Below, in pieces: positions 45,568-61,922 of a DNA stretch of 64,000 nucleotides. Positions within the stretch are counted from its first letter, which is position 1, and each line of letters begins with the position of its first letter. The notes beneath the pieces are model-generated. The model ran no database searches, was not told the DNA's origin, and saw nothing but the letters and a program-made list of their open reading frames with translations. The stretch covers positions 232,661-296,660 of the forward strand of contig CAZBGS010000001.1 in assembly GCA_964491785.1 (NCBI GenBank). The letters run 5' to 3'. The position numbers and the translations under genes are program-made. This stretch comes from an uncultured Pseudobdellovibrionaceae bacterium (GTDB taxonomy: Bacteria; Pseudomonadota; Alphaproteobacteria; Micavibrionales; Micavibrionaceae).

Positions 45568-45981
45568 ATGATAAAACTTTCCCGTCTGGCGTGCTACGGC
45601 GTTGTGATTCTTTCCGAGATGGCGGCGGGAGAAAAGCTTCGTACGGCTTCCGGTCTTTCTGAAAAAACCGGGCTTCCGGAACCGACCGTGGCAAAAATTC
45701 TAAAATTGCTGTCGAAGGGCGGCTTTGTTTCTTCGTCGAGAGGAATTAACGGCGGATACACTCTTATCAGGGAGCCCGTAAACATAAGCATTGCAGATAT
45801 TGTCACGGCGCTTGATGGCGAGATATCGCTTACAGGCTGCGTCGAAGGCAAGAGTGAAGAATGCCGCCTTAAAAGCGGATGCGCTCTGCATGGTTGCTGG
45901 GACGAGTTGAACGCTTCGGTGAGGAACGCCCTGTCACAGACCAACCTTGCCTGCATAGTATCTTCGAAAAAGAAGGTGTAA
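45568..45981 (+). CDS. Rrf2-family transcriptional regulator (IscR/RirA-like), likely suf operon regulator
   Basis: The HTH reads [19 protein letters not shown]...[21 protein letters not shown]. Three Cys residues ([15 protein letters not shown]) resemble Fe-S ligands, and the gene is immediately upstream of sufB. Confidence 0.8.
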
Positions 45982-47432
45982 TGGACAAAAAGGCGGAAAC
46001 AATCAGCCGGGTCGAGGAGCTGAAACGCTATTCAGCGGGATTTCAGACTACGATCGATTCCGTGCGCGCGCCAAAGGGACTGAATGAGGAAATTATCCGT
46101 TTTATCTCAAGCAGGAAGGAAGAACCTGAATGGCTGCTTGAGTGGCGGCTCAAGGCTTACAGGCACTGGCTGAAAATGCCGGAGCCGACATGGGCGAAGA
46201 TTAGCTTTCCGCCGATCGATTATCAGGACGCATATTATTATTCAGCCCCAAGATCATTTGAAAACCGTCCAAAATCTCTTGACGAGGTAGATCCCAAACT
46301 GCTTGAGACCTATGAGAAGCTCGGGATACCTCTACGAGAGAGAGAGATCCTTGCCGGAGTGGCGGTGGATGCTATTTTTGATTCAGTTTCCGTTGCCACC
46401 ACCTTCAAGGACAAGCTTCTGGAGGCGGGGGTTATCTTTTGTCCGATCAGCGAAGCGGTTCGTGATTACCCGCATCTTGTGCAGAAGTACATGGGTACGG
46501 TGGTGCCCTTTACCGATAACAAGCATGCCTGTCTCAATTCGGCTCTTTTTACCGACGGTTCTTTTGTTTACGTCCCCGAAGGCGTCCGTTGTCCGATGGA
46601 GCTGTCGTCGTATTTCCGGATCAACGAGATGAACACGGGCCAGCTGGAACGAACGCTGATTATCGCGGAAAAGGGCTCCTATGTAAGTTATCTGGAAGGC
46701 TGTACAGCTCCGATGCGCGACGAGCGGCAGTTGCATGCGGCCGTGGTCGAGCTGATCGCCCATGAAGATGCAGAGATCAAATACTCCACCGTCCAGAACT
46801 GGTATCCCGGCGACGAGCAGGGAAAAGGCGGGATATATAATTTCGTCACCAAGCGCGGTCATTGCGCGGGGGCGGGATCAAGAATCTCATGGACCCAGGT
46901 GGAGACCGGGTCGGCGATCACATGGAAATACCCGAGCTGCGTGCTGAAAGGCGACAATTCGTCATGTGAGTTCTATTCAGTGGCGATAACCAATAACTAC
47001 CAGCAGGCCGACACGGGAACCAAAATGATCCATATCGGCAAGAACACACGTTCCAAAATCATTTCCAAAGGCATATCCGCCGGACACGCAAACAACACCT
47101 ACAGAGGTCTGGTAAAGGTAATGCCGAATGCGGACGGCGCGCGAAATTTCACACAGTGTGACAGTTTGCTGATTGGCAACAATTGCGGAGCGCATACCGT
47201 GCCCTATATAGAATGCCGCAATCCCGGGGCTCAGCTGGAGCATGAGGCCACCACTTCGAGAATTTCGGAAGACCAGATGTTTTACTGCAGGCAAAGAGGC
47301 ATGGGCCCCGAGGAAACGGTCGCGCTGATAGTCAACGGCTTCTGCCGAGATGTACTTCAGCACTTACCCATGGAATTTGCCGTGGAGGCCCAGAAACTGG
47401 TAGGCATTTCCCTTGAAGGAAGCGTAGGATAG
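45981..47432 (+). CDS. sufB: Fe-S cluster assembly scaffold SufB
   Basis: The SufB/SufD family core is present. The start is taken at ATG 45981, overlapping the Rrf2 stop (TAATG). Confidence 0.85.
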
Positions 47433-47464
47433 ATCCGAAAAATAAAACAGGCAGGATCAATGCA

Positions 47465-47734
47465 ATGAAAAAGATTAATTTTACCAACGTGCTTTTCTGG
47501 TTTACCGGACTTATAGGGTTCGTAATCGGAGTGATTATCTTTTTGATCATTGTCGCAGGACTGGATACCACCAGCGGAGATCCGGTAAGAAGCGGGATGA
47601 TTCTTTTTGTTTCCTTCATCATGTGCTACGGCGTGGCCTTCGGAGGCTTGATTATTATGGCGCTAACGCAAATATCTTCTACGCTTCACAGGATAGAAAG
47701 ACTTTTGAAGGATCGGGAAGAAGCCGGCAAATGA
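47465..47734 (+). CDS. Small hydrophobic protein (89 aa, two predicted TM helices) inserted between sufB and sufC
   Basis: It is an ATG-initiated ORF (MKKINFTNVLFWFTGLIGFVIGVIIFLIIVAG...) that ends 4 nt into the sufC start. Confidence 0.4.
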   Translation: MKKINFTNVLFWFTGLIGFVIGVIIFLIIVAGLDTTSGDPVRSGMILFVSFIMCYGVAFGGLIIMALTQISSTLHRIERLLKDREEAGK

Positions 47735-48477
47735 TTGAAATAAATAATCTGCAGATTAACGTAGATGACAAGACAATACTCAAAGGAATAGATCTTTCCA
47801 TCAAGCCGGGAGAGATCCATGCGGTGATGGGGCCGAACGGTTCCGGGAAATCCACTCTTTCCTACTTTCTTGCAGGCAACGAAAAATATGAACTGGCCGG
47901 GGGGGACGTCACGCTCGACGGCGAGAGTATTATTGAACTTGAGCCTGAAGAAAGAGCTGCCAGGGGCCTGTTTCTGGCATTCCAGTATCCTGTTGAAATT
48001 CCTGGAGTTACTCTCAACAATTTCCTCAAAACCTCGATTAACGCGCTGCGCAAGGCAAGAGGGCTTGAGGAGATGGATACCCTCGAGTTTCTTAAGCTCA
48101 TGAAGAAAAGAGCAAAAGAAATCGGCATCAGCGACGAAATGCTGAAACGACCTCTTAACGTCGGCTTTTCGGGGGGCGAGAAGAAACGTAACGAAGCCTT
48201 GCAAATGTCGCTGCTGGAGCCAAGATTCGCCATTCTCGACGAAACGGACAGCGGACTGGACATCGATGCCTTGCGGATAGTGGCGGAGAGCGTAAACCGT
48301 CTGAGGTCGCCTGATCGCGCTTTTCTGATCATCACTCACTACCAGAGGCTTCTGGATTATGTCGTGCCGGATCACGTGCATATAATGGCGGACGGCAGGA
48401 TACGCAGATCCGGTGGCCCGGAACTGGCCAAGGAGCTTGAAGCCAAGGGCTATAGCGAGTTTCTGGAGGTCGCGTGA
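47731..48477 (+). CDS. sufC: Fe-S cluster assembly ATPase SufC
   Basis: It has Walker A GPNGSGKSTL, signature FSGGEKKRNE, and Walker B AILDETDSGLD. The start is at MIEINNLQ. Confidence 0.9.
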   Translation: MIEINNLQINVDDKTILKGIDLSIKPGEIHAVMGPNGSGKSTLSYFLAGNEKYELAGGDVTLDGESIIELEPEERAARGLFLAFQYPVEIPGVTLNNFLKTSINALRKARGLEEMDTLEFLKLMKKRAKEIGISDEMLKRPLNVGFSGGEKKRNEALQMSLLEPRFAILDETDSGLDIDALRIVAESVNRLRSPDRAFLIITHYQRLLDYVVPDHVHIMADGRIRRSGGPELAKELEAKGYSEFLEVA

Positions 48478-49688
48478 ATAACGTAACCGCTTTGATTAAA
48501 AACAATCCCGAAAAGAAAATATATGCCCCTGAAACGGCAAGAGCTTTCACGCAAGCAGCTGGAGAATTTGTTTTAAGGCATCCCGCAGATGCAAACATCG
48601 CCGCCATCAGGGCAAGAGGCCTGCGCCAGATCGAGCTTCAGGGCCTGCCTTCAAGAAGGCTTGAAAGCTGGAAGTATACCGACCCCGGCCCCGCCCTGAA
48701 AAATAACTATGAAGTAAAAACTGTTTCACCGACAGCCAGCCATCCCACGCAGCAAGTCAATCCGGCGTTTGTCGCCGTTTTATCTCAGGACTATCCTGGA
48801 CAGGAGGTCGACGGTCAGTTATGGGCGCTAAACCAGGCTTTTCTCGACAAGCCTTATATGATCGAGGTCGGTAAAGGCGAGGAACTGGAACTGGAATTAA
48901 TCTGGAATGCCGGAGAGAAAGACGTTTTTTCATCACCACGCACAGTAATTATTCTTAAAAAAGGGGCAAGGCTACACCTTACGGAGATAATTCAGTCCGG
49001 TGAAAAATGCTGGTTTAATCTGTGCACGCAAATAATTGTTGAATCGGGTGCAAAACTTTGCCATTTCCGGCTTCAGGGATGCGGGAATGATTCTTTTTGC
49101 ACTTTGAACACCATGCTCCGGATCGAGCGCGACGGGTGTTACGAGCACCATTTCATCAATCTCGGGGCAAGGATCGGGCGGAACCAGTATCATGTAAGTC
49201 TTGAGGGCGAGAATGCCTCGTGCCGTATCAACGGCGTTAATCTGCTGGACGGGGAAAGAGTCGGGGATGCGACGGTAACCGTACGCCACAAGGCCGAAAA
49301 CGGGTTTTCCATGCAGAATATCAGGTCTGTGCTGCTGGATCAGGCTCGCGGGGTTTTTCAGGGGGCGATACAGGTCGAGCGCGAGGCTCAGAAAACAAAC
49401 GCCCATCAGCTAAGCAAGGCGCTTATGCTGAGCGAAGGGGCGGAGATGGATACCAGGCCGGAACTGGAAATCTTCGCCGACGACGTCAAATGCTCTCACG
49501 GCGCAACCACGGGACAGATCGACAGGGAGGCGATGTTTTATCTGCGCTCCCGCGGCCTGAATGAGGCGCAGGCGAAGAAAATACTTATGTCGGCCTTTGT
49601 TTCCGAGCTTCTTGAGAGTATAGATCCTGAAAAAACAAAGGATCTGTTTATTGGCCGGGTGGAAGACTGGCTGGATCGGTCAGGGTAA
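48474..49688 (+). CDS. sufD: Fe-S cluster assembly protein SufD
   Basis: The C-terminal SufD beta-helix core is present and the gene lies between sufC and sufS. Confidence 0.8.
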   Translation: MNNVTALIKNNPEKKIYAPETARAFTQAAGEFVLRHPADANIAAIRARGLRQIELQGLPSRRLESWKYTDPGPALKNNYEVKTVSPTASHPTQQVNPAFVAVLSQDYPGQEVDGQLWALNQAFLDKPYMIEVGKGEELELELIWNAGEKDVFSSPRTVIILKKGARLHLTEIIQSGEKCWFNLCTQIIVESGAKLCHFRLQGCGNDSFCTLNTMLRIERDGCYEHHFINLGARIGRNQYHVSLEGENASCRINGVNLLDGERVGDATVTVRHKAENGFSMQNIRSVLLDQARGVFQGAIQVEREAQKTNAHQLSKALMLSEGAEMDTRPELEIFADDVKCSHGATTGQIDREAMFYLRSRGLNEAQAKKILMSAFVSELLESIDPEKTKDLFIGRVEDWLDRSG

Positions 49689-50917
49689 TGAGCAATAAGG
49701 GATTTGAGAGATACCGGCAAGATTTCCCGGTTCTTGGCACGCGGATGCACGATCAGCCGCTATGCTTTCTTGATTCGGCGGCAAGCTCGCAAAAGCCGGA
49801 ACGCGTGATAAATACCATGAACGCGGTGCTGCGGGGCGGATATGCCAATATCCATCGCGGCCTTTACGAGATTTCTCAGAACGTTACCCGGCAGTATGAA
49901 TTGGCGAGGGAGAAAGCCGCCAGCTTTATTGGCGCTTCCAAAGCCGGAGAAATAGTGTTTACCCGCAACTCGACAGAGGCGATCAACCTTGTGGCGCAAA
50001 GCTGGGGGCGGTGGTTTTTACGCGCCGGGGATGAGGTGATACTTACGGAAATGGAGCATCACGCCAATATCGTCCCCTGGCAATTGCTGCGCGAACAGAC
50101 GGGTATTGTTATCCGGGTTGTTCCGATCGAGGAGAACGGGACTCTCAGGCTGAAAGAGCTTGAAAACATGCTTTCGGAAAAGACCAGACTGGTCAGCTTC
50201 GTGCATGTTTCCAACGCACTCGGCACCATAAATCCGGCGGGCGAGATAATCAGGAAGGTGAAAGCGTTTAACGAATCGATCACGGTTATGGTCGACGGCT
50301 CGCAGGCGGCGGTGCATCTGCCGGTGGACGTTGCCGCGCTCGGTTGCGACTTTTATGTGTTCACCGGGCACAAGCTGTACGGGCCTACCGGCATAGGCGT
50401 CCTTTACGGCAGAAGCGAGTTGCTTGAAGAAATGCCGCCATATCAGGGGGGAGGCGACATGATAGAATCGGTAAGTTTCGAGAAGACGACGTACAAAGCC
50501 CCGCCCCAGCGTTTCGAGGCGGGAACACCGGCTATCGTGGAAGCTATCGGACTTGGGGCGGCCATAGATTACGTGAACGGCATCGGCATGGCTGCCATTA
50601 ACGAGCATGAACTTGAACTGCTGAGCTATGGCGATCAGGCGCTGCGGGATATCAGCGGGCTGAAGATCTACGGGAACGCGCCGGAGAAAGCGGCTATTTT
50701 TTCATTCACGATTGAGGGCATTCACGCGAGCGATATCGCGATGGTACTCGATCAGTGCGGTATCGCGGTCAGATCCGGGCACCACTGCTGCATGCCGCTG
50801 ATGCGAAAGCTGGGCGTCAGCGCGACCGTAAGGGCATCCATGGCCTTGTATTCTTCGGAAAATGATATAGATAGACTGGTTGAGGGTTTGCATAAGACAA
50901 TAAAAATGTTTTCATGA
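49688..50917 (+). CDS. sufS: Cysteine desulfurase SufS
   Basis: This class-V aminotransferase has a PLP-lysine region (VFTGHKLYGPTGIGVLYG) and an active Cys (RSGHHCCMP). Confidence 0.9.
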   Translation: MSNKGFERYRQDFPVLGTRMHDQPLCFLDSAASSQKPERVINTMNAVLRGGYANIHRGLYEISQNVTRQYELAREKAASFIGASKAGEIVFTRNSTEAINLVAQSWGRWFLRAGDEVILTEMEHHANIVPWQLLREQTGIVIRVVPIEENGTLRLKELENMLSEKTRLVSFVHVSNALGTINPAGEIIRKVKAFNESITVMVDGSQAAVHLPVDVAALGCDFYVFTGHKLYGPTGIGVLYGRSELLEEMPPYQGGGDMIESVSFEKTTYKAPPQRFEAGTPAIVEAIGLGAAIDYVNGIGMAAINEHELELLSYGDQALRDISGLKIYGNAPEKAAIFSFTIEGIHASDIAMVLDQCGIAVRSGHHCCMPLMRKLGVSATVRASMALYSSENDIDRLVEGLHKTIKMFS

Positions 50918-51496: not shown

Positions 51497-53776
51497 TTGA
51501 TGAAAAAGATTCTGGACAGTTTCAGGGAAGACCCGTATGTGCCGGTTTTCTCGGTTACGCTGATGCTCAGCGCTTTTCTGCTTTTCTCCGTCCAGCCGCT
51601 CGTCAGCAAGATGATATTGCCGATACTTGGCGGCACGCCATCAGTCTGGAATACGGCGATGATGTTTTTCCAGATAACGTTGCTGGCCGGATATGCGTAT
51701 GCCCATATCACGACCCGGTTTCTTGGCGTGCGAATGCAGGCGGTGGCGCATATCGCTCTGATGATAGCTTTCGTTTTTATTCTTCCGATCGCCCTGCCCG
51801 CCGGATGGCTGCCGCCGGAGAACGCAAATCCGGCTTTCTGGCAGATCGGGGTTATGAGCATTACGGTCGGCGGGCCGTTCTTCGCGCTGGCAGCCACAGC
51901 TCCGATGCTTCAGCGGTGGTTTACAAGAACGCCCCATCCTTATGCCGGCAACCCTTACTTCCTGTACGCGGCCAGCAATCTCGGCAGCCTTGCGGCGCTT
52001 GTGGCTTATCCGATACTGATCGAGCCGCTGGCCGGACTGCAAACGCAGTCGATGAACTGGGCATCGGGATATCTTGCGTTAACGGGCCTCGTGCTCGTCT
52101 GCGCCGGAGCGGTATGGCATCAGAGCGCAGAAAATCAGGCGCAGGAAGGCAATGAGATTGTAAAAGAGCAGATATCGTGGTCGATAAAGGCGATGTGGCT
52201 GGTGTTGGCTTTCGTGCCTTCAAGCATGCTTCTGGGCGTTACGACCTTCATTACCACGGATATAGCTTCGGTGCCGCTGTTCTGGGTATTGCCGCTGGCG
52301 ATTTATGTCGGATCTTTCGTGATCGCGTTTTCAAGGCGGCAGATAGTCTCTTACGGTTTTGCCGTCTGGTTTCAGGGATTCTTTTTCGCTGGAGCGGTAT
52401 TTTTTATGTTCCATCAGCAGACAGCGAGTCTGGTTCTGATTGTTGTCCATCTTGCTCTACTCGCATGTACTTCGGTTATCTGCCACAAGGATCTGGCAAG
52501 ACTTCGCCCTTCGGCAGCCAGTCTTACTGAATTTTATCTGGTTATCGCGGCGGGCGGGGCTTTGGGGGGTATTTTCAATGCGATTTTAGCCCCAAGGCTG
52601 TTTCCTGCGCCAATAGAGTATCCGATCGCGCTTGCGGCGGCCGCCTGCCTCAGATATGCGGCGCTTCCCGGGAGCGGGATCGTCAGGGCTTATCAAAGAG
52701 CGGTCAGTGATTTTAAAGCCAGAAGGATCTTTGGCGATCCGGGCGGGATGGCAGGCATAGTTCTTCTGGCATCGGTTTGCCTTTTCGCGGCAATTTCCGG
52801 GGGAGCGTACGGCAGTTTCAAGCTGGCGGCAACGCTTGGCACAATTCTGCTGCTGCTGTTTTTATACCGCAGGTGGACATTTGCGGTTACGGCGGCGATT
52901 GCACTTGGCTGCGCGATGCTCAAGGTCTGGTTTATGGATCCAGACGTTATGCTGATGCAAAGGAATTTCTTCGGGGTGGTAAAGGTGATCGACCGCGAAT
53001 CTGAGGGAATGCGCGAACTGGTTCATGGAACCACGCTGCACGGCGCGCAGCCGCTTGCGGAGGAGCACAGGCTTACCCCGGTTACCTATTACAGCCCTTA
53101 TACGGCGGCGGGAGAGGTATTCGAGATATTCGAATCCTACCCTTCAGAAAGCCAGAAAGTCGCCGTCATCGGCCTCGGGGTCGGGGCCGTCAGTTGTTAC
53201 GGCGGCAGAGAGAGGCATTACGATTACTACGAGATCGATCCGGATATCGCAGGCATAGCGACAGATCCGGAACTTTTCACGTATTTGCGCGACTGCGGAA
53301 CGTCCAGCAAAATAATCATCGGCGACGGCAGAGTCAGGATTGCCGGGGCTGAAGACGGCGGCTATGACATGATATTGCTCGATGCTTTCAGTTCAGACAG
53401 CATTCCCGTTCACTTGCTGACTGTTGAGGCTTTTCTGCTTTACAGAAAAAAACTGGCGCCGGAGGGGCTGATCGTAACCAATATCTCGAACCGTTTTCTC
53501 GATCTGCGCCCTGTCGTAGCCACAAGCGCCAGGGACATCGGCATGACGGCCCTGTTCAAATTCAAGAATTCAGGAAGCCATATCAATTCAGGGCTGGAAT
53601 TCAGCGGCACGCTCTTCGGTGTGGTGACAGAGAACAAAGACATACTGCTGGATCTGTACCAGAGAGGCTGGAGAGAGGCGGATATAAAACCCGACCGCAA
53701 CTCCTGGACTGATGATTACGTCAATATACTCGGGGTCATGAACAGGGTCAAAGGCGAGAAAAGCAGCAAGAAGTGA
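51497..53776 (+). CDS. Fused polytopic membrane domain / spermidine-synthase-like domain protein
   Basis: The 759-aa protein has about 12 hydrophobic helices, then a C-terminal spermine/spermidine-synthase fold with a GxGxG motif (VIGLGVGAV), an acidic loop (DGGYDMILLDAFSSD), and PEGLIVTN. Confidence 0.6.
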   Translation: MMKKILDSFREDPYVPVFSVTLMLSAFLLFSVQPLVSKMILPILGGTPSVWNTAMMFFQITLLAGYAYAHITTRFLGVRMQAVAHIALMIAFVFILPIALPAGWLPPENANPAFWQIGVMSITVGGPFFALAATAPMLQRWFTRTPHPYAGNPYFLYAASNLGSLAALVAYPILIEPLAGLQTQSMNWASGYLALTGLVLVCAGAVWHQSAENQAQEGNEIVKEQISWSIKAMWLVLAFVPSSMLLGVTTFITTDIASVPLFWVLPLAIYVGSFVIAFSRRQIVSYGFAVWFQGFFFAGAVFFMFHQQTASLVLIVVHLALLACTSVICHKDLARLRPSAASLTEFYLVIAAGGALGGIFNAILAPRLFPAPIEYPIALAAAACLRYAALPGSGIVRAYQRAVSDFKARRIFGDPGGMAGIVLLASVCLFAAISGGAYGSFKLAATLGTILLLLFLYRRWTFAVTAAIALGCAMLKVWFMDPDVMLMQRNFFGVVKVIDRESEGMRELVHGTTLHGAQPLAEEHRLTPVTYYSPYTAAGEVFEIFESYPSESQKVAVIGLGVGAVSCYGGRERHYDYYEIDPDIAGIATDPELFTYLRDCGTSSKIIIGDGRVRIAGAEDGGYDMILLDAFSSDSIPVHLLTVEAFLLYRKKLAPEGLIVTNISNRFLDLRPVVATSARDIGMTALFKFKNSGSHINSGLEFSGTLFGVVTENKDILLDLYQRGWREADIKPDRNSWTDDYVNILGVMNRVKGEKSSKK

Positions 53777-55418: not shown

Positions 55419-55423
55419 TATTG

Positions 55424-55831
55424 CTACCGCCGTTTTTTCTTTTTCCCGTACAGCTCCAGCCTGTGATCGACGAGATCAAAACCCATTCTGGCCGCTATTT
55501 TCTCCTTCAGAGCCTCAAGCTCGTCGTCATGAAACTCTATTACTTCGCCGGATTCAAGATCAATAAGATGATCGTGATGGTCGGTATTGATTTCATATCT
55601 TGAAAAATTCTCCCTGAAGTCATGGCGGACGACGATATCAAGTTCGTCCAGCAGGTTCATGGTACGGTACACGGTCGCCATACTAATAGCCGGATTAAGG
55701 CTGCGCGCACGGTCGTAGACCATTTCCACCGACGGGTGGTCTTCCGAATCGCTGATAACTTTCAGGATAGTGCGCCGCTGATCTGTCATTTTGAGACCGG
55801 CTTTGCTGCATTTTTCCTCGATAGTATTCAT
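55424..55831 (-). CDS. Fur-family metalloregulator domain (possible separately initiated cistron at internal ATG 55829-55831)
   Basis: The 135-aa segment MNTIEEKCSKAGLKMTDQRRTILKVI...ATVYRTMNLLDELDIVVRH...HHDHLIDLESGEVIEFHDDELE aligns with E. coli Fur (LKKAGLKVTLPRLKILEVL...ATVYRVLNQF...HHHDHLICLDCGKVIEF). It lacks the CxxC pair. Confidence 0.6.
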   Translation of the reverse strand: MNTIEEKCSKAGLKMTDQRRTILKVISDSEDHPSVEMVYDRARSLNPAISMATVYRTMNLLDELDIVVRHDFRENFSRYEINTDHHDHLIDLESGEVIEFHDDELEALKEKIAARMGFDLVDHRLELYGKKKKRR

Positions 55832-57442
55832 AAATTCCACTGGCAGGTTGAAGCTTACAGGGGTTTTAAGAAAGTTACTATTTCCTTCAGCGCCAATCAA
55901 ATCCTGACTTGTGCTGAGGTTTTGACCTTTTTTAAGAGTTCTGAAGGGAGGGAAGATAATTTTGACAGTAGTTCCAAGACCAAGCTCGGACTGAAGATCG
56001 AGAGATCCTCCATGCAGTTCCGCCATTGCCTTGGCAAGCGGAAGGCCAAGTCCGGTGCCCTGATAACCCTTGACGTTGACAGGCTCGCTGATCTGGCCGA
56101 AGGGTTCCATAGCTTCCTGAATGCGGTCTTTGGGAATGCCTATGCCCTTGTCGATGACGGCAAACTCCAGCGAACCGTTTTTCAGTCGCCTGGCTCTAAT
56201 AATGACCGCCTGTCCGCTATTGGAAAATTTGACAGCGTTGGTTACCAGGTTTATCAGAATCTGCCGCACCAGACGCATGTCGGCAAAGAGCGGTGGAATG
56301 CCGTCCTCAACTTCCTCGACAATTGTCAGGCCGCTGGTAAAGGCTCTTGAGGCCATCATTCTTGAGACAGTCGCAACAAGGTCAGAAACGGAAATCCAGC
56401 TTTCATCCAGCTCTACCCTGCCGGCCTCGATCTTGGACATATCAAGTACTTCGTTAATGATTTCCAGAAGATGGCATGCACTAAGGTGAATGTCCCCAAG
56501 ATACTCCTTGTACTTGTCATTGCCAAGAACTCCAAAAGTCTCGTTTTTCATCATTTCGGAAAAACCTATGATCGCGTTCAAAGGCGTACGCAATTCGTGT
56601 GACATATTGGCAAGGAAAGTGGACTTGGCGTGATTTGCCATATCCGCCTGCTCCTTGGCAAGCCTTAAGGAGACTTCCATCTGCTTGCGAAGAGTGATGT
56701 CCATGACTGTTGTTACCTGAAAGCGTCTGTTCTGGCTAAGTTCAAGAGTCGCCGTAGTGAACAGAGCATTGGCGACTGAACCATCCTTGCGCTCTATTCT
56801 CATTTCACCAGAGCTGCGGTATCCGCTACGGATGAATTCATCGTGGTTGATTTGCATGGTTTCCCGGTCTTCGAGCGGGGAGATATCGGCAAAATCCATA
56901 CCGATTAGTTCTTCCCGTCCCCAGCCATACATGCGAATGAAACTTTCATTAACCTTAACCACACGGCGCGTTTCGTCTGAAACCAGGATACCGACCTCGC
57001 TAACATCGAATATGGATGACAGAAGGGATATCGCGTCATCCCGTTCACGCTGTAGCATGGAATGGTCGGCGCTGTCGGCATGGGCGATAACGTCCATATA
57101 ATCGACGTTACCATCATCGTCGACCACAGGGTTGATAATGAAGCCGTGGACGCGTAGACCGCCGGGAAATCCTGGCAAAGACTGCATGCTTACAGGCTTT
57201 TTCTGTTTGATGCAGACTTCAAAGGAATGACGAAAATGCCTTGAATTATCGGCGTCCAGAAACTCATCCAGCTTTTGACCAAGAAGATTTTTTTGGCCTC
57301 TGTCAAAGTATTGCAAAGCTTTTTTGTTGGCGCTGATGAGGAAATAGCCGCCAAGCCCATCCGGCCTGACGAGAAATCTCGGCACAGGCATTAGATGGAA
57401 GAGCGTTCTGTAATCAACCAACCCTTCACTCATCGCGTTCAT
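55424..57442 (-). CDS. Cytoplasmic two-PAS sensor histidine kinase with in-frame C-terminal Fur-family domain (672-aa continuous ORF)
   Basis: The HK part has an H-box (MSHELRTPLNAIIGFSEMM) and a G2 box (GTGLGLPLAKAMAELHGG), with no TM segment. The same frame then continues without a stop codon into a complete Fur-like domain at 55424..55831. Confidence 0.65.
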   Translation of the reverse strand: MNAMSEGLVDYRTLFHLMPVPRFLVRPDGLGGYFLISANKKALQYFDRGQKNLLGQKLDEFLDADNSRHFRHSFEVCIKQKKPVSMQSLPGFPGGLRVHGFIINPVVDDDGNVDYMDVIAHADSADHSMLQRERDDAISLLSSIFDVSEVGILVSDETRRVVKVNESFIRMYGWGREELIGMDFADISPLEDRETMQINHDEFIRSGYRSSGEMRIERKDGSVANALFTTATLELSQNRRFQVTTVMDITLRKQMEVSLRLAKEQADMANHAKSTFLANMSHELRTPLNAIIGFSEMMKNETFGVLGNDKYKEYLGDIHLSACHLLEIINEVLDMSKIEAGRVELDESWISVSDLVATVSRMMASRAFTSGLTIVEEVEDGIPPLFADMRLVRQILINLVTNAVKFSNSGQAVIIRARRLKNGSLEFAVIDKGIGIPKDRIQEAMEPFGQISEPVNVKGYQGTGLGLPLAKAMAELHGGSLDLQSELGLGTTVKIIFPPFRTLKKGQNLSTSQDLIGAEGNSNFLKTPVSFNLPVEFMNTIEEKCSKAGLKMTDQRRTILKVISDSEDHPSVEMVYDRARSLNPAISMATVYRTMNLLDELDIVVRHDFRENFSRYEINTDHHDHLIDLESGEVIEFHDDELEALKEKIAARMGFDLVDHRLELYGKKKKRR

Positions 57443-57448
57443 TAACAG

Positions 57449-58339
57449 CTATGTTTCATTTTTCATATTTCTAAGGTATCTTTTAAGCGGGCTTACCTCA
57501 TAGTACTGAAGTGATACGTCCTTTTCAGATACATACTGGTCGATGTCGTCACGAAGATATACGATAAGCTGCTTAACATCATCACCCTCCCCGGGTTCGG
57601 CGGTAACATATGAGAGGGTGGTTTGACCGCCGGCCTCCTTTAGCATGCGCCTCAGCCTGTTTACCGCGGCCATACCGCCTCTGATATCCGCATGCTTCAG
57701 GCAAAGCACGAATTCTCCATTATCGATGTAATAAGCATCGTCATAGGTACGCACGCATTTTCTGACGATATCGGCAACCGAGCTTATTATTTCCTCCAGA
57801 TGCTCATGGGAAATGCCATGCGAAAACTCGCCAAAACCATCAATTCTGGCAAGGACAACGCAAAACGGCTTGCCTCTTCTGGCCCGACGCTCCATTTCCA
57901 GTTCCAGATCGCGGAACATCGCTTCAGATGTACGCAACCCGGTAAGAGTATCTATTCCACTACCGGCAAGAATGTTGTCCTTTTCCAGCCTGCGTATGTG
58001 AGCAAGGAAGGATTCAGAGAGGTTGATCAGGTTGTCCATCAAGGAAATATCGGGCCTGCCTTCACTCGCACTGCCTGCTTCAATTAGGTTGTCAGCGGCC
58101 TGATACATCTCTTTTGAAATAGATAGGATGATATCCACCATCCTTTCGTGAACCCCGTTATCCCGCAGTTCTTCCATCAGGTTGCCGGCGCCGGAGGGGG
58201 GGCTGGCAGGGACAGACCTGCTTTCCCCGGGATAGAAACTCTTGCGCATGATACGGCCAAACCAATCGCTATGCTCATCGAGTATTAGCGTTATGGCCCT
58301 GATCATCTTTTCCTTTTTTTCCTTTTCTTTTTCGTCCAT
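57449..58339 (-). CDS. GGDEF-domain protein with degenerate active site (DNGEF in place of GG[D/E]EF)
   Basis: The domain contains DTLTGLRT, the I-site-region RxxD-like RIDGFGEF, and YYIDNGEFVLCL at the A-site. The ~150-aa N-terminus begins with a KEKEKKEK tract and is not a receiver domain. The gene sits 7 bp upstream of the HK-Fur ORF. Confidence 0.65.
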   Translation of the reverse strand: MDEKEKEKKEKMIRAITLILDEHSDWFGRIMRKSFYPGESRSVPASPPSGAGNLMEELRDNGVHERMVDIILSISKEMYQAADNLIEAGSASEGRPDISLMDNLINLSESFLAHIRRLEKDNILAGSGIDTLTGLRTSEAMFRDLELEMERRARRGKPFCVVLARIDGFGEFSHGISHEHLEEIISSVADIVRKCVRTYDDAYYIDNGEFVLCLKHADIRGGMAAVNRLRRMLKEAGGQTTLSYVTAEPGEGDDVKQLIVYLRDDIDQYVSEKDVSLQYYEVSPLKRYLRNMKNET

Positions 58340-58424
58340 ATGATGAATCCAGCAGAAAATGACAGGTTTTATAATACTACGATTAAAAGCGTCCGGTAAA
58401 GGAAGGGCGCATAATTAGTGAGAT

Positions 58425-59624
58425 TTAAAGAAGATTGTCGTTAAGCCATTCTTTTTCGAGCTGCCTTAGGGTTCCCTGCCTGATGGCCGATCTGATCTCC
58501 TGCATCAGGGTGGAAATGACGCCGATATTATGGCGGGTGAGAATTGTGCCCGCTGTGCCCGGTTCCGCCTTGAGCAGATGGTGAAGCGAAGCTTTGCTAT
58601 AGGTACGGGAAACTTCCGTGGGCATGCGAGAATCAAGGGGGGTAAAATCATCGCGAAACCTGGAATTTCTAAGATTAATCGAGCCTTTCGGATCGCCTTT
58701 GATCAGGGCGGTTCCATGCCTTGCCATGCGGGTGACCGCTACGCAGTCAAAGGTGTCTATTCCAAGGCGTACGAATTCGAAGACATCCTTTATTCTGCCA
58801 ATTCCAAGCAGGTGCACAGGACGATCAGGGTGAATGTGTGGAACGCACATTGATACTACTTCGCGCATTTGCTGCTCGTCCTTGCCAAGACAGCCGCCGA
58901 TGGCGGTGCCGAAAAAGTCCCTGTCCCTGGTGTATTCGCAGCACTCGCGGCGAAGTTTCTCGTATACGCCGCCCTGCACCACGCCATACAGGGCCTGACG
59001 TCCGTCGTTGCCGCGCCTGAATTCTTCAAGAGAACGGTCTTCCCAGCGGTGTGTACGTTCCATTGAACGAGCGGTGTACTCTTCACTGTCATGAAACGCG
59101 GTAAGCTCGTCGAAAGCCACGATCAGGTCGGCGCCGATGCGGCGCTGGGTGTCGATGGAAACCTCGGGAGAGATAAAGAGCTTGCTGCCGTCCAGGTGGT
59201 TACGGAAGGTGACTCCATCCTCGTCTATCGAGAGAAGCAGGTTTGGCAAGTCTGTCTGCCTGCGTCTGCCCTTGATTTCATCAGCTACTCCTCCGTATTG
59301 CAGCGAGAAGATCTGGTAGCCGCCGCTGTCGGTAAGCATCGGGCCTTCCCAGGTGGTGAATTCGTGAAGACCCCCGGCCTTTTCGATGATCTCGGCCCCC
59401 GGCTGGACGAGAAGATGATAGGTGTTCGAAAGAATGATCTGCGCCCCGGCTTCCTTAACCTCTTTCGCGGCAAGTCCCTTGATAGTGCCTTTTGTGGCGC
59501 AGAAGATATAATTAGGAGTTTCGATGGTTCCGTGCGGAGTTTCGAGCAGTCCGGCACGCGCGTGCGTGCCTTCCGTCTCATCCCTTTTCGTTACCTGAAA
59601 GCTGAAATTCGGGTATAGCGACAC
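58425..59624 (-). CDS. tgt: Queuine tRNA-ribosyltransferase
   Basis: The N-terminal motif HARAGLLETPHGTIETP is followed by a TIM barrel and a C-terminal zinc site. The start is taken at GTG 59622-59624 because the longer ATG ORF would overlap rpmB. Confidence 0.8.
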   Translation of the reverse strand: MSLYPNFSFQVTKRDETEGTHARAGLLETPHGTIETPNYIFCATKGTIKGLAAKEVKEAGAQIILSNTYHLLVQPGAEIIEKAGGLHEFTTWEGPMLTDSGGYQIFSLQYGGVADEIKGRRRQTDLPNLLLSIDEDGVTFRNHLDGSKLFISPEVSIDTQRRIGADLIVAFDELTAFHDSEEYTARSMERTHRWEDRSLEEFRRGNDGRQALYGVVQGGVYEKLRRECCEYTRDRDFFGTAIGGCLGKDEQQMREVVSMCVPHIHPDRPVHLLGIGRIKDVFEFVRLGIDTFDCVAVTRMARHGTALIKGDPKGSINLRNSRFRDDFTPLDSRMPTEVSRTYSKASLHHLLKAEPGTAGTILTRHNIGVISTLMQEIRSAIRQGTLRQLEKEWLNDNLL

Positions 59625-59632
59625 AGGCCGGT

Positions 59633-59923
59633 TCAGCCCTTCGCGGCCATAACCCTGGCTACCTGTTCCCTGACTTTGCGCAGTCCGGCGTCGATCTTGC
59701 TGGCAGGCGTGGAAGCGAGCCATGCGTCAAGGCCGCCCTTATGATCTATAGTGCGGAGACCATTGGTTGATACGCGAAGCCGAACCATGCGTCCCAGAGC
59801 CTCGCTGTAAAGGCTGGTGTCCTGGATATTCGGCAGGAACCTGCGGCGGGTTTTGTTATTGGCATGCGATACATTATTGCCCGAAAGCACGCCTTTTCCC
59901 GTAACCATGCAACGACGACTCAT
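59633..59923 (-). CDS. rpmB: 50S ribosomal protein L28
   Basis: The sequence [32 protein letters not shown] is the L28 signature. The start is the internal Met of the ORF-track entry. Confidence 0.85.
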
Positions 59924-59976
59924 TGTCTCGCCCTTTCCTTCTATAATCAATCTAATAGCTTGACTTAAAAATTTGA

Positions 59977-61323
59977 ATGCCGAACTTATGCCAGTACGGT
60001 TTGAAAAGTCAAGCGGAAAGGGCTTTTACACCTATGAATCAGGAAAATCAACTGTCTTTAACGTCGGGTGTGGGTTCCGGAACCCTCGTTTATATGCGCT
60101 GGCTGGCCGTCGCGGGCCAGAGCACGGCGATTCTGGGGGCCTATCTCCTTCTGGGAATCGACCTGCCACTTGCCGCCACTCTAGCGGTTACAGGTATTTC
60201 CGCTGCTTTGAATCTCTTCATACATTTCAAAGGACTTGAACTGGTTTCGAATAAAAGGATTTTCGGGCTTTTATGCTTTGACACGCTTCAGATCGCTTCT
60301 TTGCTATTGCTTGCCGGCGGCCTTGAAAACCCGTTTTCGCTATTTTTGCTGGCTCCGGCAGCGGTCGGAGCGGCGCTGCTGGATGGCAGGCACACGGTGT
60401 TTTTGCTTGGGGTATTCGCGTTGACCCTGCCGGTTTTATACATTTTTGCGATGCCGCTGGAATGGCCGGGTAATTCATATGAGTTCCCTAAGGAATACAA
60501 GCCTGGAATGCTGACTGCCCTGTTACTGTCCTGTGGGTTCACTGCTTTTTACATCAGAAGGACGCTTTTTGAAGCCGTCAGGCTTAACAGGGCGCTCAGC
60601 GCGATGCGTCTTGCCCTGGCCAGGCAGGAACAAGACTCCAGACTGGGAATTCTTGCAGCTGCCGCAACACATGAGTTAGGCAGTCCCTTAAATACTATCA
60701 GTCTTATAGCGGGAGATATTAAGAAAGAAATTGAACAAGACTCGCCTTTGAGGGAAGACGTCGAGTTGCTCGCAAGTCAAATCGGCAAATGCAAGTCAAT
60801 TCTTATGGAATTTTCCAGCCGCCCGCGGGAAATAACTAATAGCTTTGAACAGCCCATACCACTCGAAGTGCTTCTTGCAGAGATATCAGATCAGTACAAG
60901 ATGTTATTTCCTTCTGTTAAAGTTATTGTCGAACAAGGCAAGGCTTCCCCGGCACCGCCGCCTGAAGTGATCAAGACGGCGGAGCTGAGCTACGGGCTTG
61001 GCAATATCATAAAAAATGCCTTTGAGTTCGCAGGTGAAGAAATCAGGCTTGTTTATTTTTGGGATGAAAATTATATTTTTATTGTAATAGAAGATGATGG
61101 CCCGGGTTTTTCAAGTAAGGCTTTAAGCAATATCGGCAGTCCCTACTTTTCAGAACGAAAAAGTGCTGGCAAAAATATGGGACTGGGTATATTTATCGCG
61201 CGAACGTTACTTGAGCGGACAGGCGCGATCCTTAGCTTCAGTAATCGATGTAACGGCAAAGGCGCAAGAATCGCTGTGCAATGGCCGCGCAATGTTATTG
61301 ATAGCGGCGGTAAACGTTTTTAG
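59977..61323 (+). CDS. regB: Membrane redox-sensing histidine kinase RegB/PrrB/ActS family
   Basis: It has six predicted TM helices, the H-box [14 protein letters not shown] characteristic of the RegB family, and the HATPase motif [12 protein letters not shown]. The real start may be MNQENQ (60034). Confidence 0.7.
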
Positions 61324-61355
61324 TCTGAAACGGGGAAAATCTGTATAAAACCGAG

Positions 61356-61922
61356 ATGACACAAAAATCAAAGACTTCGACAAAGGGCAGGCTTCTGATC
61401 ATCGACGACGATGCGGTTTTGGCAGATCGTCTTGATAAATCGCTGGCAAAGCGCGGATTTCTGACTGAAACCGCGCTTTCCAACAGTGAGGCCATGGAAA
61501 AAATCAGTTTGAATGCCCCTGATTTCGCTTTGATAGATCTGAGAATCGGTCATGAGAGCGGCCTTGCTCTGATCGATGCGTTAAGGAAAGCCTCGCCCCA
61601 GTGCCGGATCGTGATGCTTACGGCCTTTGGCAATATCGCCACGGCGGTTGCGGCGGTAAAATCGGGGGCGATCGATTATCTAGCGAAACCGGCGGACGCC
61701 GATGCTATCGAGAACGCGCTGCTTCAGGAGGGTGAACATTCGCTTCCCCCGCCGCCCGCCGAACCGATGACCGCGGAAAGGGTACGATGGGAGCATATCC
61801 AGAGAATTTACGAGCAGTGCGAACGAAATATTTCGGAAACCGCCCGCAGGCTGAAGATGCACAGGCGGACATTGCAGAGAATCCTCAGTAAATACGCGCC
61901 CAGGGACAATCCGGAAGAGTAG
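61356..61922 (+). CDS. regA: Response regulator RegA/PrrA/ActR family (receiver + Fis-type HTH)
   Basis: The receiver domain begins LLIIDDD and the C-terminal HTH (NISETARRLKMHRRTLQRIL) matches the highly conserved RegA C-terminus. Confidence 0.75.
   Translation: MTQKSKTSTKGRLLIIDDDAVLADRLDKSLAKRGFLTETALSNSEAMEKISLNAPDFALIDLRIGHESGLALIDALRKASPQCRIVMLTAFGNIATAVAAVKSGAIDYLAKPADADAIENALLQEGEHSLPPPPAEPMTAERVRWEHIQRIYEQCERNISETARRLKMHRRTLQRILSKYAPRDNPEE

Follow-up and report, generated by a model that had tools for sequence, protein, structure and literature searches.

What role is left for a diguanylate cyclase homologue whose catalytic signature has gone? The question is raised by a gene at 57449-58339 (-) in a 64,000-nucleotide stretch of DNA from an uncultured Pseudobdellovibrionaceae bacterium (assembly GCA_964491785.1, contig CAZBGS010000001.1, positions 232,661 to 296,660); the whole stretch is called the window below, and all coordinates refer to it. 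The gene is an open reading frame (ORF) with an ATG start that encodes a 296-amino acid (aa) protein, the pseudo-cyclase, in which a GGDEF fold carries DNGEF instead of the signature GG[DE]EF, and a PAS histidine kinase is encoded immediately downstream. Taken as a whole, the evidence from its sequence family makes it likely that this protein is a dead diguanylate cyclase homologue that serves as a receptor for cyclic di-GMP (c-di-GMP) through the allosteric I-site.

A GGDEF domain with a lost catalytic site and an invariant I-site

A profile search run exhaustively over 1.84 billion cluster representatives places the pseudo-cyclase in a family of at least 282 clusters (50% identity) at E<=1e-30; an earlier word-indexed search had recovered only 21 relatives. 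Conservation is given below for the best 150 of the at least 282 family representatives (E<=1.6e-58), with 140-149 sequences at a few columns. Almost all are full-length proteins of about 280-325 aa, and 142 of the 150 have at least 270 aa. Every named member comes from Micavibrio and related metagenome-assembled genomes, and the loci that carry family members are titled Micavibrio or alphaproteobacterial metagenome-assembled genomes. The labels "Pseudobdellovibrionaceae" and "Bdellovibrionales" reflect NCBI's placement of Micavibrio, an alphaproteobacterial epibiotic predator (PMC6717892).

The Pfam GGDEF model matches residues 129-241 (E=2.7e-11, 44 bits against a cutoff of 23.8), and no Pfam family matches the N-terminal 128 residues. 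A previous sequence-only reading of the window had described a 296-aa GGDEF-fold protein with a DNGEF signature in which the DxLTGL and RxxD elements are retained, and each of these features can be read directly in the sequence. The domain starts with DTLTGL (aa 130-135, 57935-57952, -), where D130 is conserved in 96% and G134 in 92% of the 150 representatives. For the catalytic and allosteric positions, the active cyclases E. coli DgcZ and Caulobacter PleD were used as references, with their sequences checked against PDB chains 4h54 and 1w25/2wb4 and then aligned to the family hidden Markov model. DNGEF falls opposite GGEEF and RTYD opposite RxxD, and a HMMER alignment with the c-di-GMP-bound cyclase 3IGN (RQSD..GGEEF against RTYD..DNGEF) gives the same register as with PleD and DgcZ. 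The expectation of the earlier reading, that the active site (A-site) would prove lost and the I-site kept, is thus borne out.

The loss extends to every part of the A-site. The metal-binding D327 of PleD corresponds to R165 (Arg in 91, Gln in 21 and Lys in 15 family representatives), the guanine contacts N335 and D344 to S173 and E182, both variable in the family, and the phosphate contacts R366 and K442 to Y204 and V270. The signature G368-G369-E370-E371-F372 is replaced by D206-N207-G208-E209-F210 (GAT AAT GGA GAA TTC, 57710-57724, -). None of the 150 representatives, and none of 38 in a smaller family set, has a canonical GG[DE]EF; the pentad is nearly free to vary (GNGEF, GDGEF, EGGEF, QDDQF and others), and E209 is kept in just 86 of 149.

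The I-site shows the opposite pattern. R359 and D362 of PleD align with R197 and D200 of the RTYD motif (aa 197-200, CGT ACC TAT GAC, 57740-57751, -), both present in 150 of 150 representatives, and the five residues that separate RTYD from DNGEF are the canonical I-site spacing. The third primary I-site residue, R390, corresponds to R228 (57656-57658, -), which is conserved in 149 of 149. In the first GGDEF helix, the segment R151-R-A-R154 (57878-57889, -) contains R151, aligned with the secondary I-site R313 of PleD and present in 96% of the family, and R154, present in all 150. Only R154, R197, D200 and R228 are 100% conserved in the whole protein, and three of these four constitute the primary I-site of PleD. 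This invariance is striking because the pseudo-cyclase evolves faster than its neighbours: across the related loci described below it retains 26-61% identity, compared with 54-80% for the kinase, 55-75% for Fur and 70-81% for prfC.

Compared with an active diguanylate cyclase (EC 2.7.7.65), the protein has the fold and lacks the signature, the metal Asp and the guanine Asn/Asp. Compared with the degenerate-GGDEF receptors that use an I-site, it has the same loss of the catalytic site on a kept fold, together with the RxxD spacing and the helix Arg. An A-site that is free to drift beside a frozen I-site is the reverse of what an active cyclase family displays, and this forms the core evidence for a role as c-di-GMP receptor. 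We are highly confident from these alignments that the pseudo-cyclase is catalytically dead, and binding of c-di-GMP at its I-site is quite probable. The suggestion that the protein is inactive and may act as a c-di-GMP receptor or adaptor therefore remains the best reading, since no representative has the signature and the equivalents of R359, D362 and R390 are universal.

Three points weigh against a receptor role. The spatial geometry of the I-site rests on alignment, no active cyclase emerged when all six frames of the 64-kb window were searched by regular expression for motifs resembling GG[DE]EF, and a Pfam scan of ten of its larger ORFs detected no gene for a cyclase, EAL or PilZ protein. 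M. aeruginosavorus encodes a homologue of Bd1971 with cyclic nucleotide monophosphate-binding and EAL domains (PMC6717892), which makes c-di-GMP turnover likely in the lineage. Literature searches for Micavibrio combined with c-di-GMP, GGDEF or diguanylate returned nothing on this family.

A predicted N-terminal helical bundle with a DgcZ-like layout

The N-terminal region had been described as distinct from a receiver domain, and structure prediction agrees with this. The AlphaFold2 model, computed with the family alignment (mean predicted local distance difference test score, pLDDT, of 86), contains no receiver domain there and instead shows a four-helix bundle over aa 1-124 (57968-58339, -). 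Its helices span residues 2-35, 50-60, 65-91 and 98-124, and the last one continues into the GGDEF domain.

This architecture is DgcZ-like. DgcZ (YdeH) has the same length of 296 aa and the same layout, with a four-helix bundle fused straight to the GGDEF domain, and full-length DgcZ is the top Foldseek match to the pseudo-cyclase model. A comparison of DgcZ with the family by hhalign gives a collinear match of 97.5% probability over residues 6-281, and the HxxW and FxxW helix motifs of DgcZ are kept. DgcZ/YdeH is also the best NCBIfam match (NF007380), collinear over residues 8-236, although its 87.8 bits fall well short of the cutoff of 256. In contrast to the pseudo-cyclase, DgcZ is an active, zinc-inhibited cyclase with a GGEEF signature and a zinc site of three His and one Cys; in the pseudo-cyclase the zinc ligands are lost, as are the signature and the metal Asp. 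The DgcZ zinc site H22/C52/H79/H83 reads H23/S49/S75/Y79, and the eight residues seen most often at the C52 column of the family alignment do not include Cys.

His is found at the equivalent of H22 in 25 of 140 representatives, of H79 in 65 of 146 and of H83 in 22 of 144, and at all three positions in 3 of 150. These residual His may be remnants of a metal site of the CZB type. Pfam detects no family, including CZB, in 30 N-terminal regions of family members, and when the N-terminal profile alone is compared with the PDB, the DgcZ CZB domain appears at a non-significant E=0.37 among designed helical proteins. The term CZB-derived is thus a lead and not an assignment to that family. The bundle can be described as like that of DgcZ and CZB without the zinc ligands; on these comparisons the layout is DgcZ-like, the pseudo-cyclase is not a member of the DgcZ family, and it may plausibly descend from a CZB-GGDEF cyclase.

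Gene neighbourhood and a possible link to the kinase

If the protein is a receptor, what would read its state? We compared gene order in 35 fetched loci (labels such as L012 and L033), retrieved with a 7-sequence alignment of the family; 34 of them are informative for the kinase and 30 for Fur. The order is rpmB, tgt, the degenerate GGDEF gene, in some loci upp, the PAS kinase, Fur, in some loci a DUF1491 gene, and prfC. An orthologue of the PleC-like PAS kinase lies downstream of the pseudo-cyclase in 32 of the 34 informative loci; in relatives with directly neighbouring genes, the spacer measures 6-100 nucleotides. Loci in which tgt or prfC has moved (L022, L023 and L025) still contain the pair, as do those that lack Fur (L032 and L033). 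The L033 homologue, 262 aa long, is so divergent that it has no Pfam match on record, yet it keeps the R..D residues, the helix Arg and an LSPLQR motif.

In the window, the TAG stop of the pseudo-cyclase (57449-57451) and the ATG of the kinase (57440-57442) are separated by 6 nucleotides (57443-57448, -), one fewer than the 7 base pairs given before. No terminator-like site or hairpin is present between the two ORFs. A weak match to a sigma-70-like promoter lies between tgt and the pseudo-cyclase gene (58371-58400, -; TTTACC-18-TATTAT, 9 of 12 positions, a consensus match only), and scans with Rfam and for tRNAs gave no matches near the locus.

A scheme can be proposed for how c-di-GMP could act through the pseudo-cyclase. 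The protein would dimerise through the N-terminal bundle, as DgcZ does, and intercalated dimers of c-di-GMP would bind R197, D200 and R228 of one GGDEF domain and bridge to R151 and R154 of the other. In PleD, intercalated c-di-GMP bridges the primary I-site and the secondary site of the partner domain. The ligand would then lock the dimer in a distinct conformation to be read by a partner, for which the orphan PleC/PdhS-like PAS histidine kinase immediately downstream is the likeliest candidate. Contact could be made through RRLEKD, a motif at the end of the linker helix that is conserved across the family, or through the C-terminal motif E-V-S-P-L-K-R-Y (aa 281-288, 57476-57499, -), both of which we propose as partner-contact surfaces, and would alter the kinase or phosphatase output. 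The C-terminal motif has the family form [ED]-x-S-P-L-x-[RK]-[FY] (E/D in 99%, S in 94%, L in 92% and R/K in 92% of the 150 representatives) and is followed by an extra helix (residues 284-295 in the model, pLDDT about 63) that lies beyond the matched part of the DgcZ and PleD alignment.

An action of the pseudo-cyclase on the adjacent kinase is a tentative proposal, and several observations count against it. The flanking genes tgt, rpmB and prfC are nearly as conserved in position as the kinase, within a rpmB-tgt-GGDEF-kinase-Fur-prfC block that is syntenic across the order; as these housekeeping flanks are equally syntenic, adjacency is only modest evidence of a functional link and may reflect collinearity and not function. 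About a third of the loci have upp inserted between the pseudo-cyclase and the kinase. In two loci, L012 and L030, the family member keeps its I-site intact but no kinase lies downstream; the L030 protein is divergent, and in L012 a breakpoint directly follows the pseudo-cyclase, after which come genes for an acyl-CoA dehydrogenase, rpiB, glyA and nusB. The locus also offers no receiver partner for the kinase.

These points would suit a c-di-GMP receptor that works without the adjacent kinase, perhaps as a localisation factor or adaptor for another target like PopA or CdgA, with the adjacency an inherited synteny. We regard this explanation as unlikely: the pair outlasts both the rearrangement of its flanks and the loss of Fur, the spacers are as short as 6-12 nucleotides, and the fused kinase-GGDEF receptor SgmT provides a precedent (PMC3509222). 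The most far-reaching form of the kinase proposal is itself doubtful. It would make the pseudo-cyclase a dedicated, c-di-GMP-gated accessory subunit of the orphan PleC/PdhS-type PAS kinase, in a pair conserved across the obligate predatory Micavibrio lineage that ties c-di-GMP to the predatory cell cycle or to the control of iron or redox state, given that the kinase lies near Fur and suf; in design it would be a split, trans-acting SgmT derived from a zinc-sensing DgcZ-like cyclase. The three-part signalling unit of adaptor, kinase and Fur put forward by the sequence-only reading is accordingly supported in part for the kinase, which is present in 32 of 34 loci with the counter-examples just described, and is not supported for Fur as an integral part, as detailed below.

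Conserved surfaces and less probable roles

The family also conserves surfaces that are unrelated to the nucleotide, namely the RRLEKD linker, K215 and the C-terminal ExSPLxRY motif. Such surfaces would be expected of a structural pseudo-enzyme that does without nucleotide binding and works as a constitutive scaffold or accessory subunit, in which the invariant Arg and Asp residues serve protein contacts or the fold. However, the invariant set includes exactly the three c-di-GMP contacts of PleD, and R151 aligns with the Arg of the secondary site. The RxxD motif is also dispensable for the fold, as many GGDEF domains lack it. A purely structural role is therefore improbable, well below the kinase-independent receptor in our estimate. 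We consider it very improbable that the protein is an active cyclase despite its unusual signature, or that it senses GTP as the degenerate GGDEF domain of Caulobacter PdeA does. Both readings were rejected because each substrate-contacting position is lost. Public sources name members "diguanylate cyclase", and E209 and F210 of the signature are still present in the window protein, but the substrate and metal positions are all lost and variable across the family, and E209 itself is retained in only 86 of 149.

Comparison with known degenerate GGDEF receptors

A receptor of c-di-GMP built on a dead GGDEF domain has counterparts elsewhere. CdgA of Bdellovibrio bacteriovorus is reported to lie at the prey-contact pole, and no kinase neighbour is known for it. 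The protein (Bd3125) has GVNEF and RxxD motifs, shows no cyclase activity and binds c-di-GMP with a Kd of about 2 uM (PMC3271064). Like the pseudo-cyclase, it is a stand-alone protein of a predator with a degenerate signature and an RxxD five residues upstream; it differs in its N-terminal region and lineage, and is absent from the sequence matches of the family searches. In Myxococcus xanthus, SgmT is a histidine kinase whose degenerate GGDEF domain uses an I-site to bind c-di-GMP (PMC3509222), which shows that a combination of kinase and dead-GGDEF receptor is functional. In SgmT the GGDEF domain is joined to the C-terminal end of a hybrid kinase, whereas the pseudo-cyclase is a separate polypeptide, encoded upstream, with a four-helix bundle of its own. 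PopA of Caulobacter differs in its two N-terminal receiver domains (REC-REC) and its output as a proteolysis adaptor, and PelD of Pseudomonas in its transmembrane-GAF N-terminus and its output in polysaccharide synthesis.

Judged by sequence, then, the pseudo-cyclase belongs to a new, sizeable and mis-annotated family of a known type, the degenerate-GGDEF I-site receptors of c-di-GMP. Databases name its members "diguanylate cyclase", and the evidence indicates that they do not synthesize c-di-GMP and are probably receptors. This matters for any census of c-di-GMP signalling in predators of the Micavibrio type, whose genomes are small and contain few genes of this sort. The drifting catalytic site beside a frozen I-site also represents a clean natural experiment, and the family is a good candidate for structural and biochemical work on receptors that use the I-site only. 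If the coupling to the kinase is real, the SgmT design of kinase and dead GGDEF would here be divided between two polypeptides.

The kinase-Fur reading frame

The ORF downstream of the pseudo-cyclase (55424-57442, -) encodes 672 aa, with Pfam domains PAS-PAS-HisKA-HATPase_c of the kinase read through into a Fur-family regulator. Every relative has the kinase (about 500-535 aa) and Fur (about 135 aa) as separate genes, and among the best 120 homologues of the kinase only the window protein has a FUR domain. At the junction, GGAAATAGTAAC (55874-55885, -) consists of a run of A followed by TAG TAA out of frame, and one extra A ends the kinase at aa 521. The frame now reads ...GAA GGA AAT AGT AAC..., and insertion of an A in silico (55881-55883) changes this to ...DLIGAEGK-TAG-TAA; the resulting 521 aa are the exact length of the kinase of the nearest relative, whose tail is similar (...DLAEIDK*). 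The ancestral ATG of Fur (MNTIEEK...) is still present at aa 538 of the fusion ORF. Since the genes are separate in relatives and a single A repairs the frame, the fusion results either from a recent deletion of one base in this genome alone or from an error in the homopolymer. NCBI, ENA and Logan all list this 672-aa product, a hint that the reads themselves carry the deletion.

A frameshift in the upstream run of six A was considered as the cause and rejected, because the simplest repair is the one A at 55881-55883, which leaves the in-frame tail ...DLIGAEG resembling those of the relatives. The description of the ORF as a fusion of histidine kinase and Fur rests on a single homopolymer base, and this base needs to be checked before the fusion is interpreted.

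The Fur part is closest to true Fur models, yet scores below their cutoffs. Fur follows the kinase in 28 of 30 loci and is missing between the kinase and DUF1491 in L032 and L033 (Micavibrio-type; one from a marine metagenome). Fur had been presented as the third part of the signalling unit. With separate genes in all relatives, its absence from these two loci and a fusion that hinges on one A, it appears instead to be a frequent neighbour and not an obligatory component. About 3 kb beyond prfC lies a sufB-sufC-sufD-sufS operon (45879-50917, +), and in relatives Rrf2 and sufB occupy the same position, which gives the locus an iron-sulfur context.

Other features of the locus

The tgt ORF upstream of the pseudo-cyclase gene (432 aa, 58425-59723, -) overlaps rpmB (59633-59950) by about 90 nucleotides, and its relatives align only from about aa 27-37 on. 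The true start of tgt is probably internal and the N-terminal extension spurious. On the other side, most relatives have a DUF1491 gene between Fur and prfC (L001-L005 and L031-L034); it is missing in the window, where the Fur-encoding ORF and prfC lie only 5 nucleotides apart (55419-55423), a situation shared with L006 and L009. For a 759-aa ORF (51497-53776, +), Pfam gives no match at E<=1e-5. In L006, L001 and L031, prfC also adjoins a gene for a protein of about 750 aa that has no Pfam match, and the product of the ORF is a conserved protein of unknown function. Finally, a divergently placed kinase and response-regulator pair (59977-61922, +) adjoins rpmB, and the same pair is found in L006, L007 and L032. 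The Pfam domains on record for the relatives are 6TM_PilS and HATPase_c in the kinase and Response_reg in the regulator (with a weak HTH_8 in L032), and we take the pair to be RegB/RegA-like (PrrB/PrrA-type).
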